A stretch of 32,000 nucleotides of DNA from an uncultured archaeon (GCA_964577555.1 CAZNZM010000002.1:33012-65011), one strand, 5' to 3'; numbered from the stretch's first letter, positions 2,203 through 24,660 are shown. Notes: a model not told the origin generated them from the sequence alone. A program made the numbers and translations.

Positions 2203-2699
2203 TTTGTTTTTTTTGTAGAATGTTTTTTGTTCAAATCATTTTTTTTAATTTTTTTATTTTTTTTCGCTGGCTTTTTTTAGAAGTTTTTTTCAAGATTTTT
2301 TTATTGGTTTTTTTGTTTTTTTTAATTTGTTTATTTTTTTTGCGAGCCAAGTATTTTAAGTGTGTTTTTTTGTGTGAAACTTTTTTTTTGTGATTTGTGT
2401 TTTTAGGTAATTTGTTTTTTAGACATTTTTTTATTTTTTTAATTATTTTTTTAAAAATAATTTTGTTTTTTTGCGAGCCGTTTTTTTGTTGTTTTTTTTT
2501 GGATTCTTTTTTGCGGGACGATTTTTTTGTTATTTTTTTGTGAATTTGTTTTTTTTAAGTTTGTTTCGGAATTATGTTTTTTTTGTGCAATTTTATTTTT
2601 TTGTGGTTTTTTTTTGGCTATTTTTTGCGAGCCGTTTTTTTTTAATTTTGTTTTTTTGTTTTAGCCACTTTTTTTGTCATTTTTTTTGAATTGTTTTTT
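2203..2699 (+). repeat. T-tract island A (non-coding, T-rich on + strand, three exact GCGAGCC cores)
   Basis: 497-bp spacer between two converging 3' ends. It consists of runs of 5-10 T separated by short G/C words. GCGAGCC occurs at 2342-2348, 2473-2479 and 2627-2633, each flanked by T runs (T7-GCGAGCC-G-T7 at 2466-2487). A hand count of 2221-2280 gives 41 T in 60 nt. Confidence 0.8.
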
Positions 2700-4079
2700 T
2701 TATTCTTTTTTTAGGAATTCGGCGTAGTTTACCATGTGCATTATGGATTTTGCCGCTGAGCCGGGGTAGTCGTATGTTGTGAATCCGTGTTCTTCTATTT
2801 TTTTTAGTTGTTCTGCGGTGTATTCTCCTCCTACTGCAACAACTATTATTGGTTTGCTCGTGTTTTCTCTTGCTTGTTTTAGTATTGTGAGTTCGTCCGC
2901 GTTTAATGTTGAGAGTGTGAATAATATCATTATTACTATTATGTCTACGTTGTTGTCTTCTATGCATGCTTTGATTGCAATGTCGTATTTTTTGGCGTCT
3001 GCGTCTCCTAAAAGGTCAAGCGGGTTTGAGATTTTTATTTTCAGTTCTTGTTCTAGTTTTTCTTTTGTTTTTTCGCTGAGTGTTGCTAGTTCCATTTGTC
3101 TGTTTATTATGTGGTCTGCCATTACTATTCCGAATCCTCCTCCGTTTGTGATTATTTGTACTTTTTTGCCTTTTGGGAGGGGTTCGTTTTCAAGTATTTT
3201 TGCTGTTGAAAACAGGTCTTGTATTCCAAACGCTGATATTATGCCTGCTTGGTGGAAGACTGCTTCGTATACTTTTGCCGATCCTGCGAGTGAGCCGGTG
3301 TGTGAGATTGCTGCTTTGCTTGTTTCTTCGTGTTTTCCGCCTTTTAGTATTATGATTGGTTTTTTTTTGGCGACTTTTTTTGCTGTTTCAAAAAATTTTC
3401 TTCCGTTTTTTGCTCCTTCTAAGTACATTGTAATGACTTTTGTTCCTTTGTCTTCTCCAAAGTATTCGAGTAAATCTGATTCGTCTATGTCCATTGCGTT
3501 TCCGTATGATGCGAATTTGTTTAATCCGAATCTTTGTGTTGCAGCCCAGTCGAGTATCATTGAACCAAGTGCTCCGGATTGTGATATGAATGACAAGGTT
3601 CCTTTTGCAGGGCTTTTCATTCTTGTGTTTTCAAAAAACGTGGTGTCTATTCCGCTTTCTGTTGATTTTACTCCTACGCAATTTGGGCCCATTACTCTTG
3701 TTTGAGGGTATTTGTTTATTATTTGTCTTATCTTTTCGGTTAATTCTTTTTCTCCTGTTTCTGAAAATCCTGCGCTTATTATTATTGTTGCTTTTATTTG
3801 CATTTCTGCGCATTCTTCAAGTGTTTTTGGGACGAATTCTTTTGGCACTGCGATTATTGCAAGGTCTATGTTGTCTGGGACGGCTTTTATTGAGGAGTAT
3901 GCTTTTGTTCCTTGTATTGTAGTGTATTTTGGGTTTATTGGGTATGCTTTGTCTTTAAGAGCGTTTTTTATGTTTTTAAAAATAGTGTATCCTACGCTGT
4001 TTTCGTTGTTTGAGGCGCCTATTACTGCAGCGGTTTTTGGGTTGAAGAATTTGTCTATTGATTCTATGTTTTGTTTCAT
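2700..4079 (-). CDS. acdA: Acetate--CoA ligase (ADP-forming) alpha subunit / CoA-binding succinyl-CoA-synthetase-like protein
   Basis: 459-aa ORF. It has the N-terminal CoA-binding motif PKTAAVIGASNNENSVGY, MGPNCVG, FISQSGALG and the phosphohistidine-loop-like AISHTGSLAGS. Length and motif order match ACD alpha subunits. Confidence 0.8.
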   Translation of the reverse strand: MKQNIESIDKFFNPKTAAVIGASNNENSVGYTIFKNIKNALKDKAYPINPKYTTIQGTKAYSSIKAVPDNIDLAIIAVPKEFVPKTLEECAEMQIKATIIISAGFSETGEKELTEKIRQIINKYPQTRVMGPNCVGVKSTESGIDTTFFENTRMKSPAKGTLSFISQSGALGSMILDWAATQRFGLNKFASYGNAMDIDESDLLEYFGEDKGTKVITMYLEGAKNGRKFFETAKKVAKKKPIIILKGGKHEETSKAAISHTGSLAGSAKVYEAVFHQAGIISAFGIQDLFSTAKILENEPLPKGKKVQIITNGGGFGIVMADHIINRQMELATLSEKTKEKLEQELKIKISNPLDLLGDADAKKYDIAIKACIEDNNVDIIVIMILFTLSTLNADELTILKQARENTSKPIIVVAVGGEYTAEQLKKIEEHGFTTYDYPGSAAKSIMHMVNYAEFLKKE

Positions 4080-4231
4080 AATTGATAATAAATATTTTAA
4101 CGATTATTAAGCTTTCTAATTGCATGAAGTTTGGTGTAATTTCAAGAATTGAGTTGTTTTATGTTGTTTTACAATTGTTGATTGGGGTTAAGTGTTTGTT
4201 TTTTTTCTTTTTTTATGGGCGCGGGAGGGCA

Positions 4232-4558
4232 ATGCCTTTTAGTTTGTTTGATTTTCCATCTGATGCTTTGTTTTTTGATTTTGTTTTTCATGAGTTGATG
4301 CATGTTTTGATAGGTTTGCTTGCTTTGGTTTATGGAATGAACGTTCCTGAATTTAGGGTTGGTTTTTTGCTTCCTCGGATTTTTTTTGCTGTTTTTATTC
4401 ATAATTTTTTTTATTGGTTGACTAATGTTCATCCAAGCGTTATTTATTCTGTTATTGATTTTGGTTCTGATTCGGTAATTTTATTGAGTTTTGTTTTTAC
4501 TGGCTTTTTATTGGGTAAGTGGAATAAATTAAAAGCTTTTAAAGTTCCTTTTTTTTAG
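4232..4558 (+). CDS. Small hydrophobic protein with an HExxH motif (hypothetical)
   Basis: ATG at 4232 is preceded by GGGAGGG (4223-4229). The 108-aa product MPFSLFDFPSDALFFDFVFHELMHVLIG... has about 3 hydrophobic segments and HELMH. The track ORF opens at 4082, but that extension lies in the divergent promoter region. Confidence 0.45.
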   Translation: MPFSLFDFPSDALFFDFVFHELMHVLIGLLALVYGMNVPEFRVGFLLPRIFFAVFIHNFFYWLTNVHPSVIYSVIDFGSDSVILLSFVFTGFLLGKWNKLKAFKVPFF

Positions 4559-4876
4559 TATTTTTTTTGTTTGTCTTTTGGCTTGTTTTTGCAAGCCATG
4601 TTTGTTTTGTAAGCAGTTTTTTTGCAGAGACATTTTTTTCATTTTTTTTGAAATTAATTTTATTTTTGTATTTGTTTTGGCTGGTAGTTTTTTTGTGAAG
4701 CCATTTTTTTTAGGCATTTTTATTTTTTTGATCTAAATTATTTTTTGTCTTTTTTTTGGTAAAAAATGTTTTTTTATTGTTTGCTTTTTTGCAAGCTGTT
4801 TATTTTTTTTGAAAAAATAATTTTTTTGTTTTTGGTCGTTTTTTTTTGCGAGCCGTTTTAGGCAATTTTATTTTTT
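4559..4876 (+). repeat. T-tract island B (non-coding, T-rich on + strand)
   Basis: 318-bp spacer between converging 3' ends (small membrane protein gene on +, top6A on -). GCGAGCC at 4848-4854 is preceded by T9. Variants are GCAAGCC at 4591-4597 and GCAAGCT at 4791-4797. Confidence 0.75.
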
Positions 4877-5965
4877 TTATGGTAAAAAGTCTTCTTCTTT
4901 GATTTTTTTTGGCACGTATTCTTCTGTTATGAATCTTATTCCTTTTTTGCTTAGTGCTTCTAATTCCAGTTTTACTGCTTTTTGTCTCATGTTTGTGAAT
5001 TCTTCTTTCCATTGTTTTGCTTGGAACCATTCGTAATTTTCCATTTCTTTTAGCCTTTTAGCGTCTAGTTGGTTGAGTTTGATTGTGACTTCTTTTGGTA
5101 TTTTGAATTTTTCAATGTCTAGTGTTGTTAGTCCTACAAATTTTGCTGCTGGAGTTGCCAGTTTTTCTTCTGAGTATGAAAGCGATATTGAGCCTTGTTT
5201 TATTACTGAGTATATGTACATTCCCCATGGGTCTGCATCGCAGAGCACGTATAATGGCAAGCCGTATTCTTTGTTTAGTCTTTGTGCAAGCCTTCTTTCT
5301 CCTCTTCCTGGTTGGCCTCTTCCTGTTAGTATTATGCATTTGTGTTTTTTCCAGAATTGGTCTTCGTTGAATCTTCTCCATACTGCGTCTTTTTCAATGA
5401 ATAGTATGTATTCTGCGTTGACTTTTTTGAATTCTATGTTGTCTGGTTCAACGTTTGATGGTACGCTCCATCCGCCTGAGCCCATTTTTGTTAGGTCTAT
5501 GTTGTCTTTTCCGTCTCTGAGTTGTATGTCTCCTGCGATTATTCCTTTTGCTGAAGCCGCTAAGTGTAGTTCTTCTCTTAAGAGGTCTAGTGATGCTTCT
5601 ATGTCTTCGATGCATGGGTCTGATTCTGATTGTTCTTCAAAGGTGTTTTCGTTTGTGCCTTCTATTGTGTGTTTTAGTGCGTAGTAAAGATCCCTAATGC
5701 TTACTGTTGCTTTTGCTTCTATGACTTTTTTTATTTCTGCTGCTACGAGTATTGTTTGCATGAATTTTCTGCTGTGTGCAATGTTGAGGAATTGCCTCTC
5801 TGACATTTTGTCCCCGAGTTTTATTGTGCCGGTTTTTTTGTCAAAGAAGACGTTTCCTAGTGTTCTTACTGGCACTGCGTATGTTGGTCCTTTTCCTGCT
5901 TCTATTTGTTTTAGCAGTGTTGTTCCTATGTTTTCAAGTTTTTGTTGTACCTCTTTGTCCGCCAT
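4877..5965 (-). CDS. top6A: DNA topoisomerase VI subunit A (Spo11-like)
   Basis: 362-aa ORF. The catalytic-tyrosine region is VSIRDLYYALKH, and the Toprim acidic cluster is YVLCDADPWGMYIYSVIKQGS. It lies 2 nt downstream of top6B. Confidence 0.95.
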   Translation of the reverse strand: MADKEVQQKLENIGTTLLKQIEAGKGPTYAVPVRTLGNVFFDKKTGTIKLGDKMSERQFLNIAHSRKFMQTILVAAEIKKVIEAKATVSIRDLYYALKHTIEGTNENTFEEQSESDPCIEDIEASLDLLREELHLAASAKGIIAGDIQLRDGKDNIDLTKMGSGGWSVPSNVEPDNIEFKKVNAEYILFIEKDAVWRRFNEDQFWKKHKCIILTGRGQPGRGERRLAQRLNKEYGLPLYVLCDADPWGMYIYSVIKQGSISLSYSEEKLATPAAKFVGLTTLDIEKFKIPKEVTIKLNQLDAKRLKEMENYEWFQAKQWKEEFTNMRQKAVKLELEALSKKGIRFITEEYVPKKIKEEDFLP

Positions 5966-5967
5966 TT

Positions 5968-7704
5968 TTACTCACTCTCTTCTTCAAATCTTTGTTTATT
6001 TTTTGTTTTTTCTTTTGCTTTTTTTTCTTTTTCTTTTATTTTTTCAAAATTTTTTTCAATTTCTTCTTCTGTTGGTTCTCCTTTTGCTTCTAATTCTTTT
6101 TCTTTTTGTTCTTCTAGCTTAAGGTGTTTTAGCACTATGTTGTGGAGTTTTTCTTCTATTTCTTTTTTGTTCTTTTTTGTCAGTTCTGCTATTGCTGTTG
6201 CTACTTCGCTTGCGTATTTGTAGTACATTTTTCTTTTTGCTTCTTTTTCTGCTTGTCTTCTTACCATGCCAACGTAGTGGTATATTTTTCTTCCTGTTTC
6301 CATGATGGCTAATCTCAATTCTTCCATTATTTCGTCTTCGTCGCTTATTGCTTGTTTTCCTGCGCTTGTGTATGGTATGTGTACTGATATTAGGTTGACA
6401 AATATTGTGAGTGGCGCGTTTTCATAGTCTTTTAGTCCGTATCTTTTCCAGTCAATTGTTTGTATTGCTTTTGTTATTGCGCATCCGCCTTGATCGAATA
6501 GCAGTGGCGCTCTGTTTGCGAATCTCATTATTTCTATTTTTCTTGTTTTTTGTCCTTCTTCGTTTGTTTCTCCTTCTTTGCCTGCATTTCCGCCGTATGC
6601 TATTCCTACTTCTATTTGGAATGGAAATCCGCCTTTATATACTGCTGGTTTTCTTGTTACAACTGAGATGAATTCTGGTTTTACTATTGATTCGAGGCTT
6701 TTTTTTATTCTTTCTTCTCCTATTGGCAAGAGTCCGTCTGTGCGTGGCGCTATGAATGTCATTTTTTTGAATTGTTGTATTATTTCTTCCGCTTCTTCCC
6801 AGGTTAGTTGGTGGGGGTCTTTGTTGAGGTCAAATTTTAGGTTTTTTTGCATTTCTTCGATTGATTTGTCGCCTATTCTGTCGAATGTGTTTTTTAAAAA
6901 GGTTGAGACTTTTTTTGCTTCCGTGTACTTTGCAAGGGTATAGACTTCGTCCACGTTTACTCCTTTTGGATGTGGTTTCATTTCTATTGGTTTTCCAGGT
7001 AGTTCTTTGAGTGTTCTTTTGAAAATTGTTTTTTCTCCTGTGGGTTCTATGAATATTATTTGTGCGTGCGGGTTTGCTATTGCTGTCCTTCTTAAGTATT
7101 CTAATGGTGCTTGATCTGAATTTACGTATTTTACTCCTTTGAATTTTGCTTTTATTATTGTGCCTCTGAATTCTTTGTTTATTTCTTGCAAGTTGGATAT
7201 TTTTGGTTCGTTTTTTTTAGGGTCAATTGTGAGTTCAAGGCTTATAGGTTTTCCTTTGCCTGTTCCTGTAATGACTTGTACTGCTTTTCCTGTTGTTATT
7301 TGTGATAGCATAGTGCATCCTGATGCTCCGATTCCTTGTTGTCCGCGTGTTTGCATCATTCTGTGGAATTTTGTTCCTGCTAAGAGTTTTCCAAGAGCTT
7401 TGCCTACTGTTTCTTGTGTCAAGCCAGGCCCGTTGTCTTTTACAATGACTTCGTAATATTCTTCTCCAAGTTCTTTGATTTGGACTTCTACGTCTGGCAA
7501 TATGTTTGCTTCTTCGCATGCGTCTATTGAGTTTGTAACATATTCGTGGACTATTGTTGTAAGTGTTTTGATTTTTCCGGTTAATCCTAGCATTTGCATG
7601 TTCTTTTTGAAGAATTCGGCCACGCTGTGTTCTTTGAATTCTTTTGCTATTTCTTCGGCTGTTTTGCCGTTGCTTTGTATGTTTTCTTCTGCCATTTTTT
7701 TCAC
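5968..7704 (-). CDS. top6B: DNA topoisomerase VI subunit B (GHKL ATPase)
   Basis: 578-aa ORF with Bergerat-fold motifs EYVTNSIDACEE (N box), VKDNGPGL (G1) and GQQGIGASG (G2). It ends in a K/E-rich acidic-basic tail. The GTG at 7704 overlaps the KH gene stop (GTGA); the ATG at 7695 is an alternative start. Confidence 0.95.
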   Translation of the reverse strand: MKKMAEENIQSNGKTAEEIAKEFKEHSVAEFFKKNMQMLGLTGKIKTLTTIVHEYVTNSIDACEEANILPDVEVQIKELGEEYYEVIVKDNGPGLTQETVGKALGKLLAGTKFHRMMQTRGQQGIGASGCTMLSQITTGKAVQVITGTGKGKPISLELTIDPKKNEPKISNLQEINKEFRGTIIKAKFKGVKYVNSDQAPLEYLRRTAIANPHAQIIFIEPTGEKTIFKRTLKELPGKPIEMKPHPKGVNVDEVYTLAKYTEAKKVSTFLKNTFDRIGDKSIEEMQKNLKFDLNKDPHQLTWEEAEEIIQQFKKMTFIAPRTDGLLPIGEERIKKSLESIVKPEFISVVTRKPAVYKGGFPFQIEVGIAYGGNAGKEGETNEEGQKTRKIEIMRFANRAPLLFDQGGCAITKAIQTIDWKRYGLKDYENAPLTIFVNLISVHIPYTSAGKQAISDEDEIMEELRLAIMETGRKIYHYVGMVRRQAEKEAKRKMYYKYASEVATAIAELTKKNKKEIEEKLHNIVLKHLKLEEQKEKELEAKGEPTEEEIEKNFEKIKEKEKKAKEKTKNKQRFEEESE

Positions 7705-8234
7705 AATTCAAATTTTTGATTGTTGTAATGTCTTTTTAAAGATTCGTATGCCATGTTGTGTGTTGCTCCGCCCAAGAGCATTTCTATTGCGCTTTTTGCT
7801 TTTTCGACTCCTTCTGGTTTGCCTATTATTGATATGGTTTTGCCGTAAACCGATATTTTTGTTCCTGTTTCTTTTTCTATTTCTTCTCTTGCTTCTCCTT
7901 TGCTGCCTATTACTCTTCCTTTTTTTGCTTTCATTCTGTTTTCGCTTTTTCCGAGTATTTCTCTTAATTCAATTATTTCGAGTGTTGTTTCGTCTTGCAG
8001 TAGTTTGAAAGCGTTTTCCGGTGAAAATCCTCGCCCTATTGCTTTTACTATATTCATTGCTTTGAGAAAGCCGATTGGGTTGCCTTTCATTTGTATTTCG
8101 ACTTCTCCTGAATTGCTGTCAATTTCAATTTTTGTATGCGTAGTTTTGGCTATGTATGTTTTTGTTTTTCCTTTTTGTCCTATTAAGACTCCTATGCGTT
8201 CGTGCGGTATCAAGAGAAATTCCGTGTTTTGCAT
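7701..8234 (-). CDS. KH-domain RNA-binding protein (two type-1 KH domains, Pno1/Dim2-like)
   Basis: 177-aa ORF with two GxxG KH loops (GVLIGQKGKTK and GRVIGSKGEARE). A KH protein next to a RIO kinase and aIF-1A is a common archaeal neighbourhood. Confidence 0.8.
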   Translation of the reverse strand: MQNTEFLLIPHERIGVLIGQKGKTKTYIAKTTHTKIEIDSNSGEVEIQMKGNPIGFLKAMNIVKAIGRGFSPENAFKLLQDETTLEIIELREILGKSENRMKAKKGRVIGSKGEAREEIEKETGTKISVYGKTISIIGKPEGVEKAKSAIEMLLGGATHNMAYESLKRHYNNQKFEL

Positions 8235-8282
8235 TTTAATGATAAAATATGTTGAAGTATTATTAAGTTATTGTCTTTCCTG

Positions 8283-8667
8283 AATTTTAAAAAGTGCTTT
8301 GCAGGTCGTTTTTTTTATTTTTCTATTGTTTTTTTAGTCATTTTTTTTGTCTATTCTGGTTTTTGTCTCTTTTTTTTAATTTTTTTCTTTTGTGTGTTTT
8401 TTTTCAAGCCGTTTTTTTGTTTTTTTTGGTGAGCCTTTTTATTTTTTGAATTTTGTTTTTTTTGTTTTTTTTTGGCGAGTCTTTTTTTTCTATTTTTTTG
8501 CTTTATTTTTTTTGTTCTTTTCAGTGTTGTGTTTGTTTTTTTATTTGCAATTTGTTTTTTTTGTTAACTGTTTTTTTTTGACAATTTTTATTTTTTTTAA
8601 GTTTTATTTTTTTAGGCTGTTTTTTTTGGATTTCTTTTGGTTGTTTTGGCGATTTTTGGAGTTTGGT
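8283..8667 (+). repeat. T-tract island C (non-coding, T-rich on + strand, shares a near-identical block with island D)
   Basis: The spacer lies between the rio 3' end and the KH gene 5' end, both on the - strand. CAAGCC at 8405-8410, GAGCC at 8431-8435 and GCGAGTC at 8475-8481. Positions 8431-8481 match 19146-19196 at 50 of 51 positions. Confidence 0.8.
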
Positions 8668-9441
8668 TTATTTTTTTTCTATTTCTTTTTTTCTTTGTTT
8701 TATGTCTGAGTACATTTTTTCGTAGTTGGTTTTAACTCCTTTTTTTGCAAAGTATGTTGACATGTTTAGTATGTCTCTTTCAAAGAATTCTTTGCTTTTT
8801 GGGTGTGAGGTTATGACTGCTTGTGCAAAATCTATGAACCATAATTTTTTTTCTTTGACGAGTATGTTGTATTCTGAAAGGTCGGAGTGTATCAGGCCAG
8901 CCATGTAGTATTTTACTATGAAATTTATTGTTTGTTCGTAGTAGTTTTCAAGTTCTTTTGGAGTTGGGTTTGTTTCTTTGAGCCTTGGTGCTGGTGTTGA
9001 ATTTTTTCCGATGAATTCCATTACTACTATGTTGTTTTTGAATGCTAGTGGCAGCGGGACGTTGAGTTTTGCGTGGGTTGCTTCAAGGAGGTTTTTGAAT
9101 TCTTTTTTTGCCCATGAGTTTATTAGGTTTCTTATGTCTGTTTTGATTTTTCCGAATCTGTGGTCTCCTGCAATGTATTCGTTCATTCGTTTGAAATTTG
9201 TTGTTTCTTTTTTGTATATTTTGACTGCTCTTGTTCTGCCAGCCAAGTCTGTTGCGGCAAATACGTGTGCTTCTTTTCCTGTGCTTATAATGTGTTCAAG
9301 CACGTCAAAGTGTCCTTTTTGTGCTAGGTCATGTATTGTGTCAAGTGTTTGTTTGTCAAATACTTTTGCAAATGTTTTTCTATCTGATTCTTTTTTGAAT
9401 CTTTTTTCTAAAATCGGGTTGTCTTCGTATTCTATTTCCAT
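8668..9441 (-). CDS. rio1: RIO-type serine/threonine protein kinase (Rio1-like)
   Basis: 257-aa ORF with RIO signatures ISTGKEAHVF (STGKEA), AVKIYK, LIHSDLSEYNIL (HxDLSEYN) and FIDFAQAV (IDxxQ). Confidence 0.9.
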   Translation of the reverse strand: MEIEYEDNPILEKRFKKESDRKTFAKVFDKQTLDTIHDLAQKGHFDVLEHIISTGKEAHVFAATDLAGRTRAVKIYKKETTNFKRMNEYIAGDHRFGKIKTDIRNLINSWAKKEFKNLLEATHAKLNVPLPLAFKNNIVVMEFIGKNSTPAPRLKETNPTPKELENYYEQTINFIVKYYMAGLIHSDLSEYNILVKEKKLWFIDFAQAVITSHPKSKEFFERDILNMSTYFAKKGVKTNYEKMYSDIKQRKKEIEKK

Positions 9442-9488: not shown

Positions 9489-9812
9489 TTATGTTTGGAA
9501 TTTGTTTAAGTAGCCGTTTTTTTTGAGGTGTTCTACTTGTGTGCCTATGTATCTCCAAACCACGTCCGCTTTTGATGGTTGGAAGTCCCATAATTTTATT
9601 ATGACAATGTCTCTTTCTCTCAGCCATGTTTTCTTTTTCATTCTTCCAGGTATTCTGCATATTCTTTCTTTTCCGTCTTCGCATAGTATTTTGACTTGGT
9701 TGGAGCCGTGGAGTTGTATTACTTGTCCGAACATTTCCAGTTTGTCTTTTTTTGGCATAACTATTTTTCTTAAATGTTCTTCTTGGATTTCTTGTTCGTT
9801 TTCTTCTGTCAC
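9489..9812 (-). CDS. eif1a: Translation initiation factor aIF-1A
   Basis: 107-aa ORF. The S1/OB core is GQVIQLHGSNQVKILCEDGKERICRIPGRMKKKTWLRERDIVIIKLWDFQPSKADVVWRY. Confidence 0.92.
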   Translation of the reverse strand: MTEENEQEIQEEHLRKIVMPKKDKLEMFGQVIQLHGSNQVKILCEDGKERICRIPGRMKKKTWLRERDIVIIKLWDFQPSKADVVWRYIGTQVEHLKKNGYLNKFQT

Positions 9813-9814
9813 TT

Positions 9815-10105
9815 TTACACCTTGATTATAATTGCGTGTTCTATTCCGCAGATTTTTATTATCTCTTTTTCGTTTATTAAACCTTCTTTGATGGCTGTTT
9901 TTATTGGTTCTTTGCCGAACAAGTTTATGCTTGTGGCTTCTTTCATGAGTTGTGCGAGTTTTTTGTGGTTTGTTTTTTCTCCTTTATAGAATTCTTCGGA
10001 AATTTGTATGTCGTATTTTTCATCTTTGAAATTTTTTCCAATAAGATTTTCTTCGCAAGCCGCGAGTATTGTTTCGTTTCCCATTTGGTGTATTTTGTAG
10101 TACAA
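9815..10105 (-). CDS. Small conserved archaeal protein, DUF424-like
   Basis: 96-aa ORF packed between aIF-2beta (4-nt gap) and aIF-1A (2-nt gap). The pattern ILAACEENLIGK...ISEEFYKGE resembles the DUF424/COG2412 family. This assignment is from memory of the family pattern. Confidence 0.5.
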   Translation of the reverse strand: MYYKIHQMGNETILAACEENLIGKNFKDEKYDIQISEEFYKGEKTNHKKLAQLMKEATSINLFGKEPIKTAIKEGLINEKEIIKICGIEHAIIIKV

Positions 10106-10109
10106 TATT

Positions 10110-16813: not shown

Positions 16814-17437
16814 ATGTCGAGGATAAGGGATTTGAGGGATTTAAAAAACGAGGAAATGTTTCATTTTCCTTCTTGGTTAAAGTATTTTTTTATTATTGCT
16901 TTTTTGTTGCTTTTTGCCTATTTGGTTTTTTCAAACATGGTTTTTGTTAAAAGCTTTGTAATAGGTTATGGTTTGTTGGGTCTTTTTGTAGGTTCAATAA
17001 TAGCTAATGCAACCGTGCTTTTTCCAGTGCCTGTTGTTGATGTTGTTTTTCTTGCACTTGCCGGCGATTCAACTTCTATTTTTGAAGCAATTTTTTTGGG
17101 CTTTGTCGTTGGTTCTGGTGCGGCGATTGGTGAAATGAGTGCTTATCTTGCCGGGCTTTTTGGGATTCAGGCTGCGGAAAGGGTGAAGAAAGCAGAGTTT
17201 GATAAAATGAAAATAATAAGGGAAAAAATCAGCAAGTTTGGCGGTTATTTCATTTTTTTCTCTGCTTTGGTGCCTTTTCCTTTTGATATAATCGGCATAA
17301 CTGCTGGCTTGATTAAGTTTGATTATCGCAGGTTTTTTGTTGCTGCTTTGGCTGGCAAACTCGCTCGTTATGTAATTCTTTCGTTGGCTTCATTTTATGG
17401 AATTCATACGATTAAGTCTTTTTTTGGTATTGCGTGA
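16814..17437 (+). CDS. DedA/VTT-domain membrane protein (YqaA-like)
   Basis: 207-aa hydrophobic ORF. GLFVGSIIANATVLFPVPVVDVVFLALAG and GAAIGEMSAYLAGLFG fit the DedA-superfamily re-entrant loop pattern. Confidence 0.55.
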   Translation: MSRIRDLRDLKNEEMFHFPSWLKYFFIIAFLLLFAYLVFSNMVFVKSFVIGYGLLGLFVGSIIANATVLFPVPVVDVVFLALAGDSTSIFEAIFLGFVVGSGAAIGEMSAYLAGLFGIQAAERVKKAEFDKMKIIREKISKFGGYFIFFSALVPFPFDIIGITAGLIKFDYRRFFVAALAGKLARYVILSLASFYGIHTIKSFFGIA

Positions 17438-17439
17438 TT

Positions 17440-18267
17440 TTACAAGAAAATAATTTTAAGTATTATAAATGTTGCAATCATGAATGTTGATTGTACTGGT
17501 AGTGCTGGCAAGGGTGTTTTCTTTTTTGAACTCGTATCTATTGTTGTCATTAGTCCAAGCATGGATGCAAAAATTATTGTTCCTGAAAATAGTAATGCGT
17601 ATTCTGTTTGGTAATTTTTTTTTGCTTCTGCGAGAATTGATACTGCGAATGTCAATGGTATTACTAAATCTCCTGTGCCTAGTTCGAATTTTTTTTCTTT
17701 TGTCGGTATTGCAAATGTAAAAGCCAGGTTTTTGTCTATAATTCCTTTTGCAAGCGCCACCATGTGTTTTGTTTTGAAAACCGCTATATAATCGTATATT
17801 GCAAGCAAAATTATGAATATTGCTATTGCGTCTGCCCCAATGCTTGCTCCTATTAGTGCTCCTGCTCCTGCAGTGGCAATTATGCTTGTTATGTTTCTCA
17901 AAAAAATATTTTTTGCGAATACCAGCCTTGCTGTTATTATTCCTATTCCTGCCCCTAATATTAAAAATTCTGGGGGGTTGTAAGGCACTAAAATTATGAT
18001 AATAGAACTGAATATTGCAATGCTTTCAATTATTTTGAATATTATGTATGAAAACAAGTTTGGCATTAATTTGAGCATTAAAAGTATTATTCCTGTTATT
18101 ATTAACATCCAAATTAGTAATGCTATGACATTAACCAAAGAGTTTGGGTTTTCTTCTATTATTATTGCTCTTATGTTGTTTTTTGTCAGGAAATTGCCTG
18201 CGCTTAAGCCAAGTATCATTGTGGTTGCGAAAATTAGTGATAATTTGTAGTTTATTTCTTTGTTCAT
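17440..18267 (-). CDS. Presenilin/signal-peptide-peptidase homolog (intramembrane aspartyl protease, A22 family)
   Basis: 275-aa polytopic ORF with the three diagnostic motifs in order: YD (LAIYDYIAVF), GxGD (LGTGDLVIP) and PAL (PLPALPV). Confidence 0.85.
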   Translation of the reverse strand: MNKEINYKLSLIFATTMILGLSAGNFLTKNNIRAIIIEENPNSLVNVIALLIWMLIITGIILLMLKLMPNLFSYIIFKIIESIAIFSSIIIILVPYNPPEFLILGAGIGIITARLVFAKNIFLRNITSIIATAGAGALIGASIGADAIAIFIILLAIYDYIAVFKTKHMVALAKGIIDKNLAFTFAIPTKEKKFELGTGDLVIPLTFAVSILAEAKKNYQTEYALLFSGTIIFASMLGLMTTIDTSSKKKTPLPALPVQSTFMIATFIILKIIFL

Positions 18268-18352
18268 GTTTCATTTTTAGACAACAATTATTTAATTGTT
18301 TTCCTTGGCGGTTTGTTGATTATGTATTTGTTAGTTTTGTAGTTTGTTTTTT

Positions 18353-19015
18353 TTATTCGAATATTTTTCTTCCAATTCTTATTACTGTTGCTCCTTCTTC
18401 TATTGCTATTTCATAATCGTTGCTCATTCCCATGCTGAGGTGTTTTAAATTAAGGTTTTCTTTTATGTCGCATAATTTTTGGAAATATGGCCTTGCTTCT
18501 TCGGGGTTTTTGACCAATGGTGCTATTGTCATGAGGCCTATGAATTTTACGTTGTTGTATGGCAGGTTTTTCATTGTTGTAAGCATTGATTCCACTTCTT
18601 CTGGTTTCATTCCGTATTTTTGCGGTTCGTTTGATGTATTAACTTGCAGAAAAATGTTTTGTATTTTTTCGATGTCGAGGCTTGCGTAATGTATTTTTCT
18701 TAGCAAGTCAAGGCTGTCAACCGATTGTATGTAATCGCACATTTGAACTGCTTTTTTTACTTTGTTGCTTTGCAAGTGTCCTATAAAGTGTATGTCTGTT
18801 TTGAGTTCTTTTAAGTCAGGGTATTTTTCTTCGAGTTCTTGTATGGTGCTTTCGCCTATGTCTGTAATGCCGTGTGAAACAGCTTCTTTTATTTGGTTTA
18901 TTTCTCTTTCTTTTGTTGCCGCCACTATTGTTATTTCTTCTGGTTTTCTTCTGACTTTATTGCATGCCTTGGCAATTGTTTTTCTTATTTCTTCAATGTT
19001 TTGTTTTATGCTCAT
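18353..19015 (-). CDS. YggS-family pyridoxal-phosphate homeostasis protein
   Basis: 220-aa ORF. VAATKEREINQI and HFIGHLQSNKVKK are characteristic of the YggS/PROSC family. Confidence 0.85.
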   Translation of the reverse strand: MSIKQNIEEIRKTIAKACNKVRRKPEEITIVAATKEREINQIKEAVSHGITDIGESTIQELEEKYPDLKELKTDIHFIGHLQSNKVKKAVQMCDYIQSVDSLDLLRKIHYASLDIEKIQNIFLQVNTSNEPQKYGMKPEEVESMLTTMKNLPYNNVKFIGLMTIAPLVKNPEEARPYFQKLCDIKENLNLKHLSMGMSNDYEIAIEEGATVIRIGRKIFE

Positions 19016-19345
19016 GTTTATTATTTTATTGCGTCATGTTTTTATTATTCTTGGCTTAATTGTTTTTTTTGTCTTTGTTTTGTTTTTTTTTTCAAGCCGT
19101 TTTTTTGTTTGTTAGTTTTTTTAGTTATTTTTTTGTTTTTTTTATGAGCCTTTTTATTTTTTGAATTTTGTTTTTTTTGTTTTTTTTTGGCGAGCCTTTT
19201 TTTGTCATTTTTTTTTGTAAGTCATTTTTTTCTTGTTTTTTTTTGTGGATTGTTTTTTTTATAAGCCAATTATTTTTTTTGTTTTTTTGGCGAGCGTTTT
19301 TTTTGGTATTTTTTTTGAAATTTTGTTTTTTTTTCTTTTTGGTTT
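19016..19345 (+). repeat. T-tract island D (non-coding, T-rich on + strand)
   Basis: The spacer lies between the aIF-5A 3' end and the yggS 5' end, both on the - strand. CAAGCC at 19093-19098, GAGCC at 19146-19150, GCGAGCC at 19190-19196, AAGCC at 19262-19266 and GCGAGCG at 19290-19296. It shares a block with island C. Confidence 0.8.
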
Positions 19346-19759
19346 TTATTTTGTCTCGCCTTTTTTGCCTACTACTCGTATTAGCGAGCCCCATTTTATG
19401 TATTGTACTTCGTTTCCGCTTGCAAGCCCCGTAACGTCTTTCGGTTTTTCAATTTCGTTTATTGAATAATCTTTTGTGTCCATTATTTGTATTCTGTCTC
19501 CCATTATTGCTACTACTTGTGCGTCGCCTTTTTCAATTATGGGAATTTCAACATCGGCATCCACCGGTTTGAGAAGTGTTTTTTTGACGTCTCTGAATAT
19601 TCCCATTCCTGTGGCCCTGATTTTTGCCGCTCCGTGTTTTCCCGGTTTTGATTTTTCAACGCCTTTTATTTGACAGGGTTCTCCTTCAATTAGCGCGTAT
19701 GATCCTTCTTTAAGGTCTCCTGCGTATCCGAATTTTTTTTCTCCTTCAGTTATTACCAT
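19346..19759 (-). CDS. eif5a: Translation initiation factor aIF-5A
   Basis: 137-aa ORF with the hypusine-site loop SKPGKHGAAKIR. AGGTGA lies 8 nt upstream of the ATG on the - strand. Confidence 0.92.
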   Translation of the reverse strand: MVITEGEKKFGYAGDLKEGSYALIEGEPCQIKGVEKSKPGKHGAAKIRATGMGIFRDVKKTLLKPVDADVEIPIIEKGDAQVVAIMGDRIQIMDTKDYSINEIEKPKDVTGLASGNEVQYIKWGSLIRVVGKKGETK

Positions 19760-19904
19760 TTTTTTTCACCTGCATTGAAATCGCCTTAGTTAATTTTAAA
19801 TAGGTTTGCAAAACCCCTTGTATTTGTCTTTTAATTGGTTTTTAGGCTGTTTTTTTGCCCTTGTGTGAGTTTTTTAATGGTATTTCGGTATTACTTATAT
19901 TGTT

Positions 19905-20357
19905 ATGTTCAGGTTTGTTAAGAGAATATTTGATAAAGGCAATGATTGTCGTAATCTTGCCGTTTTTATTGATGGCCCAAATATTTTGAGGAAGGATTTG
20001 GGTGTTAGTCTTGCCGATATTAAGAAAAATCTTGAAAAATTTGGAAAGGTGAAGATTGGCAGGGTTTTTATGAATCAATATGCTTCTGAAAAACTTGTTG
20101 AAGCTGTTGTGAATCATGGTTTTGAGTCTGTGATTACTGTTGGTGATGTTGATGTTTCAATGGTTGCTGATGCTGTTGAAGCAGTATTTAATCCGCAGAT
20201 TCACACTATTGTTTTTGTGACGAGGGATTCGGATTTTTTGCCTGCTATTATAAAAGCCAAGCGTGAGGGAAAGGAAACAATTGTTATGCTTACTGAAGAG
20301 GCCAGTTCTGTTTCTCTTAAAAATAATGCTGATCATGTTATTTTGCTTGGGAAGTGA
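19905..20357 (+). CDS. NYN-domain (LabA/DUF88-like) predicted RNase
   Basis: 150-aa ORF. LAVFIDGPNI and VFVTRDSDFLPAIIKAKREGKE match the acidic residues of the NYN/PIN-like fold. Confidence 0.65.
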   Translation: MFRFVKRIFDKGNDCRNLAVFIDGPNILRKDLGVSLADIKKNLEKFGKVKIGRVFMNQYASEKLVEAVVNHGFESVITVGDVDVSMVADAVEAVFNPQIHTIVFVTRDSDFLPAIIKAKREGKETIVMLTEEASSVSLKNNADHVILLGK

Positions 20358-20363
20358 TTTTGC

Positions 20364-20858
20364 ATGAATCTTCCTGTAGGTGATATAATTGGAAGGGGTA
20401 TTAATTTAAAGGAAGTGGATATTCGTAAGCTTATTGAAGGTTTTTATGACAAGGGTTTTTCTGGTTATCTTGTTGCTTCTCTTTATGGTTTTGATTCGGT
20501 TGAAGAGGGCGTATTGCTTTTCAAGGATGGTTTGCTTATTGCCGCTATTTACGAGTATGAATTTTATGGAATAACTATTTTTGGCGATGTTGCTTTGCCA
20601 CATATATTCAATTCTTTTGCTGCTGATTTTATTGTGGCTGATATAGTGTCTCTTTCTAATCAGCAAATTGATCTTGTTACTGCTTTTAATGATAAAGCTA
20701 AGTTGAATAAGGTTTTGCAAAAAGGCGATGTTGGAAGGTTAATGGTCAAAGCGTTTTCTAAAGATCTTGCCAAATCTGTATTGTCCAATTTGGTAAGTTC
20801 TGCAGAGGACAAGGCTGAGATTTTTAAGAAGCTCGGTTTAGCTGGTTTGGGTGAGTGA
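20364..20858 (+). CDS. Hypothetical protein (possible PATAN/DUF4388-like or DUF2226-like fold)
   Basis: 164-aa ORF. The pattern GFSGYLVASL...EGVLLFKDGLLIAAIYE...GDVALPHI resembles small regulatory domains found with polarity or positioning ATPases and GTPases. The family call is tentative. Confidence 0.35.
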   Translation: MNLPVGDIIGRGINLKEVDIRKLIEGFYDKGFSGYLVASLYGFDSVEEGVLLFKDGLLIAAIYEYEFYGITIFGDVALPHIFNSFAADFIVADIVSLSNQQIDLVTAFNDKAKLNKVLQKGDVGRLMVKAFSKDLAKSVLSNLVSSAEDKAEIFKKLGLAGLGE

Positions 20859-21319
20859 TTGTGTTTAGGGGTGCCAAGCTGTTTTTGAAAAAGTTTGCTG
20901 AAAAAATTCTTGATGTTGATGATACTTCTAAGCCAGAGTCCCAGTTGCGTTTGTTGGAAGGTTATTCTGAGCGTTTCAAGTTTGAGTATGATTTGTCAGA
21001 CATTGATAATTTTTTGAAGGTGTTGAAGAAGAAGCATCTTGTTGATGAAATTGTTGTTTCGACTTTGCATGGCAGTGCTATTGGTTCTACTAATGGCGAT
21101 TCTGTTTCTCAGGCTGTTTCTAGTGCAGCGCTTTTCAATTATGTAAAGTCTGAGCTTCCTAAAAGCGAGGCTTTGATTGTAAAGTCTAATGGTTGGCACA
21201 TGATTTTTAATTATGGAAAAAAACTTTATATAGTAAAGGCTTCTAGTAATCTTAATATGGTTGAGTTGAAAGCATTGGCCCGCGAAATAGAGTCTTTTCT
21301 TGAAAAGAATGCTATTTAA
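20855..21319 (+). CDS. Roadblock/LC7 (MglB-like) domain protein, tentative
   Basis: 154-aa ORF whose GTG start overlaps the upstream stop (GTGA at 20855-20858). LVDEIVVSTLHGSAIGSTNGD...AVSSAALFNYVK...ALIVKSNGWHMIFNYGKKLYIVKASSNLNMVELKALAREIESFLEK fits the alpha-beta-alpha Roadblock layout. Confidence 0.45.
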   Translation: MIVFRGAKLFLKKFAEKILDVDDTSKPESQLRLLEGYSERFKFEYDLSDIDNFLKVLKKKHLVDEIVVSTLHGSAIGSTNGDSVSQAVSSAALFNYVKSELPKSEALIVKSNGWHMIFNYGKKLYIVKASSNLNMVELKALAREIESFLEKNAI

Positions 21320-21371
21320 TAGTTGCTTTTACATAACGTTTTAATAATCTAAATTCTATAAATACTTTGGC

Positions 21372-22181
21372 TTGGTGTTTTTTGTGGTAAGGGTAATTTC
21401 GGTAATTTCAGGCAAAGGCGGGGTGGGAAAGACCACTATTGCAGCCAATCTTGGCGTGGCTCTTGCAAAGAGAGGGCTTAAAGTGCTTCTCATTGATGCG
21501 GATATTGCCATGGCTAATACTTCTTTGCTTTTGAATATGCAGAATTCTCCGATTACTTTGCATGATGTTCTTTTGGGCGAGGCTTCTGTGCAGGACGCTA
21601 TTTATGATGGTCCTGCTGGTTTGAAATTTATGCCTTCTGGTCTTAGTCTTGAAAATTATCGCAGGGTTGATTCTGAAAGGTTGCAGTCAATAATTGATTC
21701 AGTGAGGGTTCAATTTGATTTTATAATTTTGGATTGTGCGGCTGGAATTGAAAAGAATGTGCTTGCCGCGATTTCAGCTTCTGATGAAGTTCTTTTGGTT
21801 GCTATGCCTACTAGTCCAAGCATTGCTGATGTTTTAAAAGCAAAGATTACTGCCCAGCGTCTTGGTGCAAAGCCGATTGGAACTATTTTGAATTTTGTTC
21901 GTGATGAAAGGGGCGAGGTTCAAAAGGATGAAGTAATGAAGATTTTGGAGCTTCCTGTGCTTGGTTCTGTGCCTTATGACGACGAAGTGAGGCGCAGTTT
22001 TATGCAGGAAAATATGATGCCTTTTATTTTGAGGTCTCCTTCCTGTCCTGCTGCTGTTGCATTGCAAAAGATTGCTGCAAGGCTTGCTGGTTTGCCAATG
22101 CTGCAAGAAGAGAAGAAAACGGGTTTTTTGAGCGGTTTTTTAAATAAATTGTTTTCTATTTTTAAAGGTAAGCCAAAGTGA
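21372..22181 (+). CDS. minD: MinD/ParA-family P-loop ATPase with a C-terminal amphipathic helix
   Basis: It has the deviant Walker A ISGKGGVGKTT, switch regions LLIDADIAMAN and ILDCAAG, and the C-terminal KKTGFLSGFLNKLFSIFKGKPK, which resembles a MinD membrane-targeting helix. The true start may be the GTG at 21384, about 27 nt after TATAAATA (21355-21362). Confidence 0.85.
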   Translation: MVFFVVRVISVISGKGGVGKTTIAANLGVALAKRGLKVLLIDADIAMANTSLLLNMQNSPITLHDVLLGEASVQDAIYDGPAGLKFMPSGLSLENYRRVDSERLQSIIDSVRVQFDFIILDCAAGIEKNVLAAISASDEVLLVAMPTSPSIADVLKAKITAQRLGAKPIGTILNFVRDERGEVQKDEVMKILELPVLGSVPYDDEVRRSFMQENMMPFILRSPSCPAAVALQKIAARLAGLPMLQEEKKTGFLSGFLNKLFSIFKGKPK

Positions 22182-22196
22182 TGGGGGGTTTTTAGT

Positions 22197-22415
22197 ATGA
22201 GTGGAAGGCCATTTGATCTTTTGAGTGCGGCAATAGGCAAGGATGTTATTGTTGAATGCAAGGGGAATGTTTCTTACCGTGGCACTCTTAAAGCATTTGA
22301 CGTGCATATGAATGTTGTTCTTGAGAATGCTGAAAAGTTTGAGAATTCCGACCCAAAAAATAAGTATGGCAAGCTTCTTATTCGTGGCGAGAATGTTATA
22401 CTTATTAGTCCTTGA
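22197..22415 (+). CDS. Sm-like archaeal protein (LSm/SmAP)
   Basis: 72-aa ORF with an Sm1 motif (VIVECKGNVSYRGTLKAFDVHMNVVLENA) and an Sm2 motif (LLIRGENVILISP). Confidence 0.9.
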   Translation: MSGRPFDLLSAAIGKDVIVECKGNVSYRGTLKAFDVHMNVVLENAEKFENSDPKNKYGKLLIRGENVILISP

Positions 22416-22420
22416 TTTTT

Positions 22421-22514
22421 GGGCCCTTAGTGTAGAGGCTAACACGCGTGCATGGCATTAAGTTTGAACTTACCAATGTGCACGATACGCCGGGTTCGAG
22501 TCCCGGAGGGTCCA
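22421..22514 (+). tRNA. tRNA-Ala(GGC) with a 21-nt intron at the canonical 37/38 position
   Basis: The hand-folded cloverleaf has acceptor GGGCCCT/AGGGTCC with the G3:U70 alanine identity pair, D stem GTGT/ACAC, anticodon stem CGTGC/GCACG and T arm CCGGG-TTCGAGT-CCCGG. The anticodon GGC is at 22454-22456. The intron 22458-22478 folds into a relaxed bulge-helix-bulge. No CCA is encoded, and a T-run follows. Confidence 0.85.
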
Positions 22515-22660
22515 TTTTGCATTTTTTTTAAAGTTTGGTGCTAAAAATATTGGTTTTAAGCAATCGCTTGTTTTTCCGGATTTTTAAGTTGTTTTACAAT
22601 AAAAAAATCCATTTTTTTTGGCACCCCTCAATAATTAATAATAGTATTTCGTAAAATAGT

Positions 22661-24349
22661 ATGACTTCCATGTTGTTTCCTGCCAATAAAAAGAAAATTC
22701 TTAAGGAATCGATTACTAGGTTGTTGCAATTAGGCATACCTGACTTGGATATTATTCAAAATCTTCAAAGTGTTGGAGTTCCTGAATCTCTTGCAAAGTC
22801 TATTTTAAAGGAAACTAAGGAAGAGTTGGCTGGAAAACAATCCAAACAATCTTTAAAGCCTGTTTCTGAAATTAAAAATTTGGTTGCTTCTGGTGAAAAA
22901 CAAGTTGAAGACAAACCCGTTTCAAAAAGCGATTCCGAATCAGCAGTTTCTGGTGATGTTGAATCTGAAGAAGAATTGATTGACGAGTTTTATGATGATA
23001 GGGAAAAAGAAGATGATTCTAATTTGCCCGATTCTCTCAGCGAAATAAAAAAGTCAATAGTTGAAGATAAGGTTGAAACGGATTCCAGTTCTGGGAAAAA
23101 AAATTCTTCTTTGGAAATTGAGACTTCTGTTTCTCACGAGGCAAGCGATGTTTCTTCTCTTTGGGAGAAAGGCATACTTGCCACTGTTGATGCAAAGTTA
23201 ACCGAAATGGAGCGAATAAGAGATGAATTGGACAAGGTTCTGGACCAAAAAATTTCAGAGAAAATGAAGGTTGAAATTAAGAAAGTGGAAGCTGTTCTTG
23301 AATCTGAACGCGCTCTTTTTTACAACAAAATAGACAGCCATCTTGAATCAAAGGCCGAAGAATTAAAGAATGTGATTGCTGCACAATCCAAGCAGTTGCA
23401 GGATGTTAATGCCAAGGCTGCTGATATTCTTTCCAAGGTCGGAGTTGAAAAAAAGTTTAATGCGGAGCTTTTGAATAGTTTGAATGAAAAAATTGCCAGT
23501 ATTGAGACTTTGCGTAGCCAAATGCTTTCTCAATTGAATCAATCCCAACTTGAACAGAGTTTGAAGTTCAAAAATTTTATGGATGAATCTGCAAAAAGGC
23601 GTGAGGAACTTGAGGCGAGAATTTCGAGGGCTTTGCAACTTGAATCAAAGATAGCTGAAGGGCTTATTGAGGACGCCAAGAATCGTATTGAGGAGATGAG
23701 GCTTGACAAGGATGCAGAGCTTTCAAAGAAGATTAACGAGAAAGTTAAGGAGCTTGATGATATTATTGCGAAGATTGATCCGAAGGGAATTGTTGAAACC
23801 GGCAAGCGCATTAAAATTCTTGATGAACAAGTAACCAAAAAAATAAGCGAGATTGACGCATTGTTGGAAAAGAAGTTTAATGATGCTGATCGTAAGATTG
23901 AGGAAAGCATTTCTGAAATGCAGGCCGCTTTGGAGAAAGCAGAGGATGAGAGGTTTGCAAAATTGAAGGAGGAGTATGCTCAAGCAATGGATGAGATGTT
24001 TAGCCAAGAGCTTGAAATTTGGGATAAAAAAATAAAATCCAAAGAGGAAGAAATAGAAAAGTTGAAGGAGCAGATTGATATTGAAAAATTTAATGCTTCT
24101 CTTGAGTCGCTTGATATTTTTAAGGATCAGTTTGTGAATACTATAAGCAAAAGCATTGATGATTATAACAGGGCTAAAAAGGAGCTTGCTGAAAAAGTTA
24201 TTGCAAGGGACAAGGCGATTAATGATTATTTGAAGAGAATTGATTCAAAGTTGGCTGAGTTGAGCGAGTTTCAGCAAAAGTTTTCAAAAAAGTTTGCCGA
24301 GATGTTGGACAAGACGGAAAGTTCGGTTGAGAAAAAACAAAAAAAGTAG
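22661..24349 (+). CDS. Long coiled-coil protein (hypothetical)
   Basis: 562-aa ORF with three parts: a ~55-aa helical N-terminal domain, a ~100-aa acidic/Ser-rich linker, and ~400 aa of E/K/L-rich heptad-like sequence. No TM segment or signal peptide is present. Confidence 0.6.
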   Translation: MTSMLFPANKKKILKESITRLLQLGIPDLDIIQNLQSVGVPESLAKSILKETKEELAGKQSKQSLKPVSEIKNLVASGEKQVEDKPVSKSDSESAVSGDVESEEELIDEFYDDREKEDDSNLPDSLSEIKKSIVEDKVETDSSSGKKNSSLEIETSVSHEASDVSSLWEKGILATVDAKLTEMERIRDELDKVLDQKISEKMKVEIKKVEAVLESERALFYNKIDSHLESKAEELKNVIAAQSKQLQDVNAKAADILSKVGVEKKFNAELLNSLNEKIASIETLRSQMLSQLNQSQLEQSLKFKNFMDESAKRREELEARISRALQLESKIAEGLIEDAKNRIEEMRLDKDAELSKKINEKVKELDDIIAKIDPKGIVETGKRIKILDEQVTKKISEIDALLEKKFNDADRKIEESISEMQAALEKAEDERFAKLKEEYAQAMDEMFSQELEIWDKKIKSKEEEIEKLKEQIDIEKFNASLESLDIFKDQFVNTISKSIDDYNRAKKELAEKVIARDKAINDYLKRIDSKLAELSEFQQKFSKKFAEMLDKTESSVEKKQKK

Positions 24350-24660
24350 TTTTTTTTGTTTTTGTGAGTTGTTTTTTTAGGCGTTTTATTTTTTTTGTTT
24401 GGTGTTTTTTTTTGAATTTGCTTTTTTTGTGTTGTTTTTTTTGTGATTTTATTTTTTTTAATTCCAAATTGTTTTGTCTTTTTTTGTGGCTTGGATTTTT
24501 TGTTTGAATTTTTGTTTTTTTTGCGAGCCGAATTTTTTTTATTTTTGAAATTTAATTTGTTTTTTTTGTTTGATCTGATTTTTTTGCTGGCATATTTAGT
24601 TTTTTTTCTATTTTTATTTTTTTCTTTTTAATGTTTGTTTTGTTTTTTTTTGTTTTACCA
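24350..24660 (+). repeat. T-tract island E (non-coding, T-rich on + strand)
   Basis: The spacer lies between two + strand genes. TTGAATTTTTG-T8-GCGAGCC (24504-24529) resembles the island C/D core TTGAATTTTG-T8-G-T9-GGCGAGCC. Confidence 0.75.

Follow-up and report, generated by a model that had tools for sequence, protein, structure and literature searches.

Polar T-run arrays with a recurrent GCGAGCC word in gene spacers of an archaeon related to Candidatus Iainarchaeum

The AT-rich reduced genomes of Buchnera and Blochmannia carry poly(A/T) tracts in homopolymer-rich intergenic spacers. In archaea, T-runs downstream of genes have been studied as terminators: in Methanococcus a larger number of U4 tracts leads to stronger termination, and the factor aCPSF1 binds RNA with two U-tracts (PMC8716108). 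Here we analyse five T-rich spacers, islands A to E, in a 32,000-nucleotide stretch of DNA from an uncultured archaeon (GCA_964577555.1 CAZNZM010000002.1:33012-65011), which we call the window. Each island is an array of T-runs broken by short G/C words, among them the heptamer GCGAGCC. We put the probability at roughly one half that the islands form a family of self-propagating simple-sequence DNA restricted to one lineage, as opposed to a dedicated signal.

The five spacers were first pointed out in an original prediction, made from the sequence alone. They lie where it placed them, measure 311-497 bp and are T-rich on the + strand, and our gene map reproduces its assignment of neighbours as convergent (A, B), both on the - strand (C, D) or both on the + strand (E). 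Its remark that most junctions in the region are overlaps or gaps below 10 nt did not hold, as only about 11 of roughly 32 gene junctions in the window are that short. Judged by sequence similarity, the source is a DPANN archaeon related to Candidatus Iainarchaeum (Diapherotrites), to whose genome proteins topoisomerase VI subunit A (TopoVIA) is 73-90% identical. The corresponding JGI metagenome contig, Ga0394875_0000113 (3300037501), is 149 kb long. Because the islands are 100% identical in assemblies of three further samples, with the sole mismatch lying elsewhere in one 5-kb contig, they are not assembly artefacts.

Composition and strand bias

On the + strand the islands contain 0.60-0.69 T, 0.11-0.17 A, 0.14-0.15 G and 0.05-0.07 C (pooled: T.66, A.13, G.15, C.06). 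Four-fold degenerate sites, also read on the + strand, have T.62, A.14, G.13 and C.11 in + genes and T.60, A.13, G.18 and C.09 in - genes. The islands are at the neutral composition of this genome, which differs strongly between the two strands but not with the orientation of the gene. Because the bias is equal in both gene orientations, it bears the signature of a replication-linked rather than a transcription-linked process. Since neutral DNA here is T-rich on the + strand only, the uniform polarity of the islands needs neither a special element nor a link to gene direction. Runs of at least 6 nt in the window number 248 for T and 42 for A on the + strand, all islands together hold only four A runs of at least 5 nt, and the ~53 kb of the source genome that we examined for arrays and gene families contained no A-run array. 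The - strand can hardly maintain T-runs here. Neutral-site asymmetry at this level is associated with animal mitochondria, and at four-fold sites it looks unusually strong for an archaeon.

The strand bias is common to the clade. In L052, the locus of the closest species representative, four-fold sites on the complementary strand have A.70 against T.11-.14 in both gene orientations, and C exceeds G and A exceeds T in several other Iainarchaeum loci, again for genes in either direction. Among GC-richer relatives we also observed C.44-.64 against G.18-.28 at four-fold sites (loci with such asymmetry include L016, L020 and L045). A Diapherotrite with a complete genome has a cumulative GC skew of bacterial type with a single origin (PMC5905446). 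In our window the cumulative GC skew climbs monotonically, and ~13 kb of extra sequence beyond it contained no skew switch. This extreme bias, with ~60% T and 13% A at the neutral sites of one strand, is perhaps a more notable result than the arrays. It illustrates the strength that a mutation bias tied to the replication strand can reach in an archaeon, and it shows that such bias can build non-coding structures that seem designed, being polar, regular and motif-bearing.

The lengths of the T-runs do not follow from composition. The islands hold 11 T6, 39 T7, 39 T8, 13 T9 and 1 T10 runs, where a geometric distribution at T = 0.66 predicts 17.7, 11.7, 7.8, 5.1 and 3.4. The base after an island T-run is G in 64% of cases, and a 9 bp spectral peak arises from T8G units. 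The T7-8 mode is found in non-coding DNA only; in coding DNA, T-run counts fall monotonically with length.

Insertion, copying and the heptamer

The junctions were compared with those of relatives, above all a close relative found in four other samples, in which the ADP-forming acetyl-CoA synthetase-like protein (ACS) is 96% and the RIO kinase protein 92% identical to that of the window, coding DNA is 85-90% identical, and four-fold sites differ from the window at 29.5% of positions. At the Mre11 to ACS junction the window has the 497 bp of island A and the close relative 3 bp, its stops reading TGA-TTT-TTA. Downstream of TopoVIA the window has 318 bp (island B) and L052 66 bp. Between the RIO and KH genes the window has a 433 bp spacer, of which the array (island C) takes up 385 bp, and two relatives have 53 bp (RIO 74% identical) and 36 bp (RIO 66% identical) with no array; a segment of the KH promoter is still recognisable in the 53 bp spacer. 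With spacers of 3-66 bp in relatives at these junctions, the islands must be regarded as inserted DNA rather than as decayed remnants. Such arrays were absent from 80 orthologous TopoVI loci.

The close relative carries an array of ~350 bp at junction B (B') and one of at least 455 bp after RIO at junction C (C'). Both are built with the T7-9 grammar of the window and carry GGCGAGCCG, GTGAGCCAAG and GCGAGCCAAG. Conservation at orthologous junctions, on which the original prediction had proposed that the islands be judged, is partial: arrays stand at B and C in the close relative, A is absent from it, and more distant relatives are without arrays. A small intergenic tandem array in a distant low-GC relative (L053 18868-19024), in which A7-9 runs alternate with CCAAAC/CAACCAAT words, may be an independent and loosely island-like case.

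All island pairs were aligned with composition-aware scoring against a token-shuffle null (25 +/- 5.4, maximum 38). Islands resemble their genome-mates more than their own orthologues: the pairs C-D in the window and B'-C' in the relative scored 88.9 and 90.9, against 42.7 and 47.3 for the orthologous pairs B-B', which are barely alignable, and C-C'. The similarity between C and D includes a 59-nt block, a recently copied patch, that is 98% identical (Table 1). B' and C' have a block of ~45 nt in common, and the shared blocks of both pairs begin and end within T-runs. Islands A and B have the module AAAAATAATTTT...GCGAGCCGTTTT in common.

Duplication and length change are also seen locally. 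Tandem Repeats Finder reported many degenerate local arrays with periods of 9-53, 2-8 copies and 59-100% matches; in island A, with its three GCGAGCC copies and 33 T runs of at least 6 nt, the internal duplications have periods of 32 and 41. The islands consist of short units placed head to tail. Their length is unstable, both between species, as the contrast of 497 with 3 bp at junction A and the poor alignment of orthologues show, and between assemblies of the close relative (L163-L166), where the first T-run of B' after the stop of a 144-amino-acid open reading frame (ORF) reads T8A or T5C. Two C/T changes in coding sequence likewise distinguish these assemblies.

The heptamer stands far above expectation. 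The six exact GCGAGCC positions listed in the original prediction were recovered, all on the + strand and in islands. The comparison with composition-based models that it suggested gave a clear excess: Markov-simulated islands held 0.011 (first-order) and 0.18 (second-order) copies, and 0 of 3000 runs reached six. AGCC occurs 14 times in the islands where independent bases predict 0.13. Its claim that the heptamer avoids coding regions was right for the reverse complement, which is found nowhere in the window, and wrong for the heptamer itself, a seventh exact copy lying within aIF5A (19384-19390). The window total is therefore seven, all on the + strand, against 0.96 expected from whole-window shuffles. 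The one-mismatch variants that were also listed are informative inside islands only, as both strands carry many of them throughout the window (35, or 42 with the exact copies, against ~27 expected). Island C has no exact copy but carries GCGAGTC and GTGAGCC. The copy in island B belongs to a module, GCGAGCCG-Tn-(A)GGCAATTTTA-T8, which is also present in C' of the relative.

We found no T-flanked GCGAGCC in the 80 Iainarchaeum TopoVI loci, where a looser pattern matched mostly coding sequence. A metagenome scan for TTTTTTGCGAGCCGTTTT returned 73 unrelated single matches and no arrays, in a collection that evidently lacks the source samples. Scans of viral contigs with two module sequences gave no match for one and chance matches only for the other.

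Table 1. Positions of the islands and of features within them, counted from the first letter of the window
Feature	Position	Strand	Details
Island A	2203..2699	+	497 bp; whole gap between convergent stops of Mre11 (+) and ADP-forming acetyl-CoA synthetase-like gene (-)
GCGAGCC, exact	2342..2348	+	Island A
GCGAGCC, exact	2473..2479	+	Island A; context T7-GCGAGCC-G-T7; AAAAATAATTTT just before, as before the island B copy
GCGAGCC, exact	2627..2633	+	Island A; context T6-GCGAGCC-G-T9
Island B	4559..4876	+	318 bp; between stops of 144-amino-acid ORF (+) and topoisomerase VI subunit A (-)
Hairpin TGGCTTG-TTTTTG-CAAGCCA, then T-rich	4579..4598	+	21 nt past stop of 144-amino-acid ORF; sole convincing GGCT/AGCC pairing
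GCGAGCC, exact	4848..4854	+	Island B; 23 nt downstream of TopoVIA stop
Island C	8283..8667	+	385 bp; between promoter region of KH-domain gene (-) and RIO kinase stop (-)
59-nt shared block, island C copy	8430..8488	+	One mismatch to 19145-19203; includes TGAGCC and GGCGAGTC
Island D	19016..19345	+	330 bp spacer, YggS-like gene (-) start to aIF5A stop (-); array proper from ~19063
59-nt shared block, island D copy	19145..19203	+	98% identical to island C block
GCGAGCC, exact	19190..19196	+	Island D; within block common to C and D
Variant GCGAGCG	19290..19296	+	Island D; T7 and T8 on either side
Island E	24350..24660	+	311 bp; between stop of 562-amino-acid coiled-coil gene (+) and promoter of PEP synthase gene (+)
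GCGAGCC, exact	24523..24529	+	Island E

Proposed propagation of the arrays and alternative readings

How could such arrays arise? The composition, the insertions, the closer similarity of paralogous than of orthologous islands, the recent patches and the length polymorphism are observed; from the pattern of shared blocks we infer that template switching may have copied sequence from array to array. Unconstrained DNA here drifts T-rich on the + strand, with T-runs possible on that strand only. In the proposed mechanism slippage within the runs would keep their lengths near 7-9, and local tandem duplication of 9-53 bp units would extend the arrays. During replication or repair, the end of a T-run may mispair with the A-run template of another array, which would copy a patch of 45-60 nt from one island to another or to an isolated T-run, of which the T5 separating the stops at junction A would be an example. 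The G/C words, GCGAGCC included, would be carried along in the copied patches. Because copying primed by a T-run would keep its orientation, all islands and all GCGAGCC copies would share one polarity regardless of gene direction.

Four hypotheses had been offered in the original prediction, and the last of them, neutral decay under strand-biased mutation combined with slippage, is the closest to self-propagation but incomplete. It accounts for composition and polarity, with which the four-fold sites agree, but not for the insertions, the exchange of patches or the retention of the heptamer.

Several points weigh against self-propagation without function. The copying mechanism is read from patterns in the sequence only. 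Strand bias alone is insufficient to produce arrays, because in L052 the bias is equal or stronger and yet there is neither a T7-8 mode nor a large array. A streamlined DPANN genome would be expected to delete useless DNA, and arrays of similar size have been kept at B and C in both species despite the turnover of their sequence. Run lengths have a sharp mode at T7-9 and break off at 10 in exactly the same way in both, and single-base interruptions of the type T8-G-T9 are common while merged runs of 16-18 nt are never seen; the mode and the lack of merged runs could reflect selection on run length. Finally, an F81-type model estimates that an orthologous GCGAGCC would stay intact in only 1-2% of cases at the divergence of the two species, and despite this both genomes still carry several exact or near-exact copies. 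Such persistence against strong mutation pressure leaves room for a selected function, and the heptamer could be kept by copying (molecular drive) or by selection. Were the heptamer or the tract length under selection, the arrays would rank as a strand-polar cis-element of a sort rarely seen in archaea and would open a way to study transcription termination of genes on the A-rich strand.

A likely by-product of the arrays concerns transcription. Each array presents 15-33 stacked U-tracts to rightward transcription and, because it stacks so many, should be a strong one-way terminator, likely a very strong one. Sense-strand oligo-T runs are found for the + genes at A, B and E, and the - genes at A, B, C and D have A-tracts in their place; the leftward genes beside C and D have A-tracts only and no U-tract, which bears out the earlier argument that oligo-T termination cannot explain those two islands.

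It is possible, though in our view unlikely, that the arrays are selected as one-way transcription barriers. Their stacked U-tracts would stop rightward transcripts, which run in the direction of the inferred replication fork, and so would intercept read-through from + genes as well as antisense output of leftward promoters and shield the neighbouring unit, with GCGAGCC as punctuation or as a factor site. Every island adjoins at least one gene 3' end and no array fills any of the window's six divergent-promoter spacers; A, B and E directly follow + genes, and the arrays at B and C were kept in two species. The + genes contain many internal T5-T8 runs, so that a stronger signal could be needed, and termination is known to strengthen with tract number (PMC8716108). 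However, known systems need one or two tracts where the arrays have 15-33, and C and D follow only - genes, to which they give no U-tract. The association with 3' ends (5 of 15 such spacers against 0 of the 6 divergent ones) is based on numbers too small for significance, and beyond the five islands there are three smaller arrays of the same polarity; a small array lies in a divergent spacer outside the window (L001 16812-17005). Island A is moreover dispensable in the close relative, and the window has convergent genes with spacers of only 2-7 bp. In that respect we observed stop-to-stop distances of 2-7 bp in the window pairs 14419/14427 and 17437/17440, and a short one for Mre11/ACS in L163; transcripts of such pairs must therefore end inside the opposing gene. 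Downstream of - genes, T-runs in the strand of the gene are nearly absent.

More doubtful still is a non-autonomous mobile repeat, of the REP/BIME or MITE kind, built on a GCGAGCC module that would move as single-stranded DNA into the lagging-strand template and so have its orientation fixed to replication. The exact placement of island A between two stop codons in one species only would suit such a repeat, as would near-identical patches at distant loci, a within-genome similarity that exceeds that of orthologues, and a strictly one-stranded motif kept against mutation pressure. But we could recognise neither defined ends nor terminal repeats nor a target duplication, and the shared blocks are only 45-59 nt long, differ from pair to pair and end within T-runs. 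No transposase or Y1/HUH family appeared in the Pfam lists of called genes across the ~53 kb, and the motif is absent from the viral contigs. A consistent hairpin is lacking too. The folding z-scores were -1.8 and +0.4, and GGCTCGC, with which the heptamer would pair, is found nowhere in the window. Pairing of GGCT with AGCC was tried and rejected, because the words are unequal in number (AGCC 14, GGCT 7) and form only one or two convincing stems. A scan for bacterial promoters and terminators, whose signals are uninformative for an archaeon, found two terminator-like hairpins in the islands, both in B.

Of similarly low probability is a cis-element of replication or chromatin, in which a specific protein would bind the islands as priming zones, fork-direction signals or histone-free boundaries, with the T-runs on the lagging-strand template and GCGAGCC as punctuation. 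The polarity agrees with the strand bias that marks replication direction, and the heptamer is far over expectation and conserved in two species. Its spacings, 131 and 154 bp in island A and 100 bp between the exact and variant copies of D, come near archaeal Okazaki fragments in length. Against this, neutral composition already accounts fully for the polarity, island A is absent in the close relative, and almost all other relatives lack arrays. Helical phasing is missing: as a candidate, phased curved DNA was rejected, with 10-11 bp spectral power at background and T-run spacings spread over 8-22 bp. The window likewise has no skew inversion or origin features, and a replication origin was rejected in view of the monotonic GC skew, the presence of five islands in 25 kb and the lack of orc1/cdc6 among the called genes. 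We give an equally slim chance to the broader proposal that GCGAGCC-punctuated arrays on the lagging-strand template are selected, replication-oriented elements of a genome with mitochondrion-like strand asymmetry, recognised by a putative dedicated GCGAGCC-binding protein; possible roles would be priming zones, fork-direction signals or one-way barriers against transcription-replication conflict.

It is very improbable that the islands are old sequence, dead genes for example, that decayed passively under strand-biased mutation without any copying, as the fourth hypothesis of the original prediction would have it in its strict form. Such decay would explain why island and four-fold-site composition coincide, but is largely refuted by the short junctions of relatives, which mark the islands as insertions, by the non-geometric run lengths, by the near-identical C/D block and by a heptamer count of six where 0.01-0.18 is expected. 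Remnants of lysine-rich C-terminal tails were considered separately and rejected because island E follows a + gene and yet is T-rich.

Least credible is an encoded product, whether a U-rich RNA (one of the hypotheses of the original prediction), an A-rich RNA or lysine-rich peptides from the - strand: gene callers do place ORFs of 39-88 amino acids in the islands, and the A-rich strand yields few stop codons, but the peptides are lysine-rich, low-complexity, not conserved and unrelated between species, the RNA folds no better than shuffles, Rfam finds no match in the islands at either threshold, and orthologous islands are not conserved in sequence.

In practice the arrays matter in another way as well, since they break metagenome assemblies and draw false gene calls of 39-88 amino acids.

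Gene context and known systems

The ORFs of the window are archaeal housekeeping genes: Mre11, topoisomerase VI subunits A and B, MCM, RIO kinase, aIF1A, aIF2-beta, aIF5A, MetRS, PEP synthase, RNase P subunits and the proteasome alpha subunit. The 144-amino-acid ORF before island B (4124-4558, +) has no Pfam match and contains a HELMH motif; the close relative conserves it with a length of 143-146 amino acids. We regard this ORF as a probable true gene for a membrane protein. An apparent 479 bp spacer elsewhere holds, according to the L157 gene calls only, a gene for a 72-amino-acid Sm-like (LSM) protein (22197-22415, +). Close by, at 22420-22515 (+), is a probable intron-containing tRNA with a T8 run directly after it. 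This tRNA was missed by Rfam and by ARAGORN at default settings and found with the ARAGORN intron option, with a 17-nt intron and a doubtful anticodon call (Gly, acc). A cluster of T-runs at 5999-6056 lies where the topoisomerase VI subunit B gene encodes a C-terminal tail rich in lysine and glutamate, and the same tail gives rise to A-run clusters at position 9600-10000 in many related loci.

GC content varies widely among relatives with similarly close TopoVIA. The protein of L061 is 91% identical (residues 115-362) at 50% GC and that of L052 90% identical at 33% GC, the window itself having 35% GC. TopoVIA homologues of 49% identity were also seen on contigs of 63-67% GC labelled Polyangiaceae or delta-proteobacterium (L069, L072, L073). 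In a more distant relative (L162 2262-5936), a 1224-amino-acid MCM contains an intein with Intein_splicing and LAGLIDADG domains.

We found no described family that matches the arrays. The original prediction had likewise recognised none, and our search of the literature on this group yielded no account of such arrays. The comparison with archaeal U-tract terminators that act with aCPSF1/FttA holds in part, as runs of at least 4 T lie on the sense strand just past the stops of the + genes at A, B and E, and several consecutive tracts raise termination efficacy (PMC8716108). However, 15-33 tracts over 300-500 bp go far beyond the described terminators, the strand of the array is fixed whatever the gene orientation, and almost all relatives are without arrays. 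Chi and KOPS resemble GCGAGCC in that the motif is found on one replication strand only, but they are scattered genome-wide through coding DNA whereas GCGAGCC is confined to arrays, bar the one coding copy. Bacterial REP/BIME elements are similar in having a short motif clustered in 3'-end spacers, homogenisation within a genome and variable presence among relatives; they differ in their imperfect palindrome and alternating orientation, neither of which the arrays have, and in their bacterial rather than archaeal hosts, and no RAYT-type transposase was seen in the ~53 kb. In the spacers of Buchnera and Blochmannia, and in simple-sequence or minisatellite DNA, bias and slippage likewise produce an excess of long non-coding A/T runs with varying lengths and rapid turnover. 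From these the arrays are set apart by their strict one-strandedness, narrow T7-9 mode, size of 300-500 bp and archaeal host, and by a recurrent, conserved G/C heptamer and the exchange of patches between loci.

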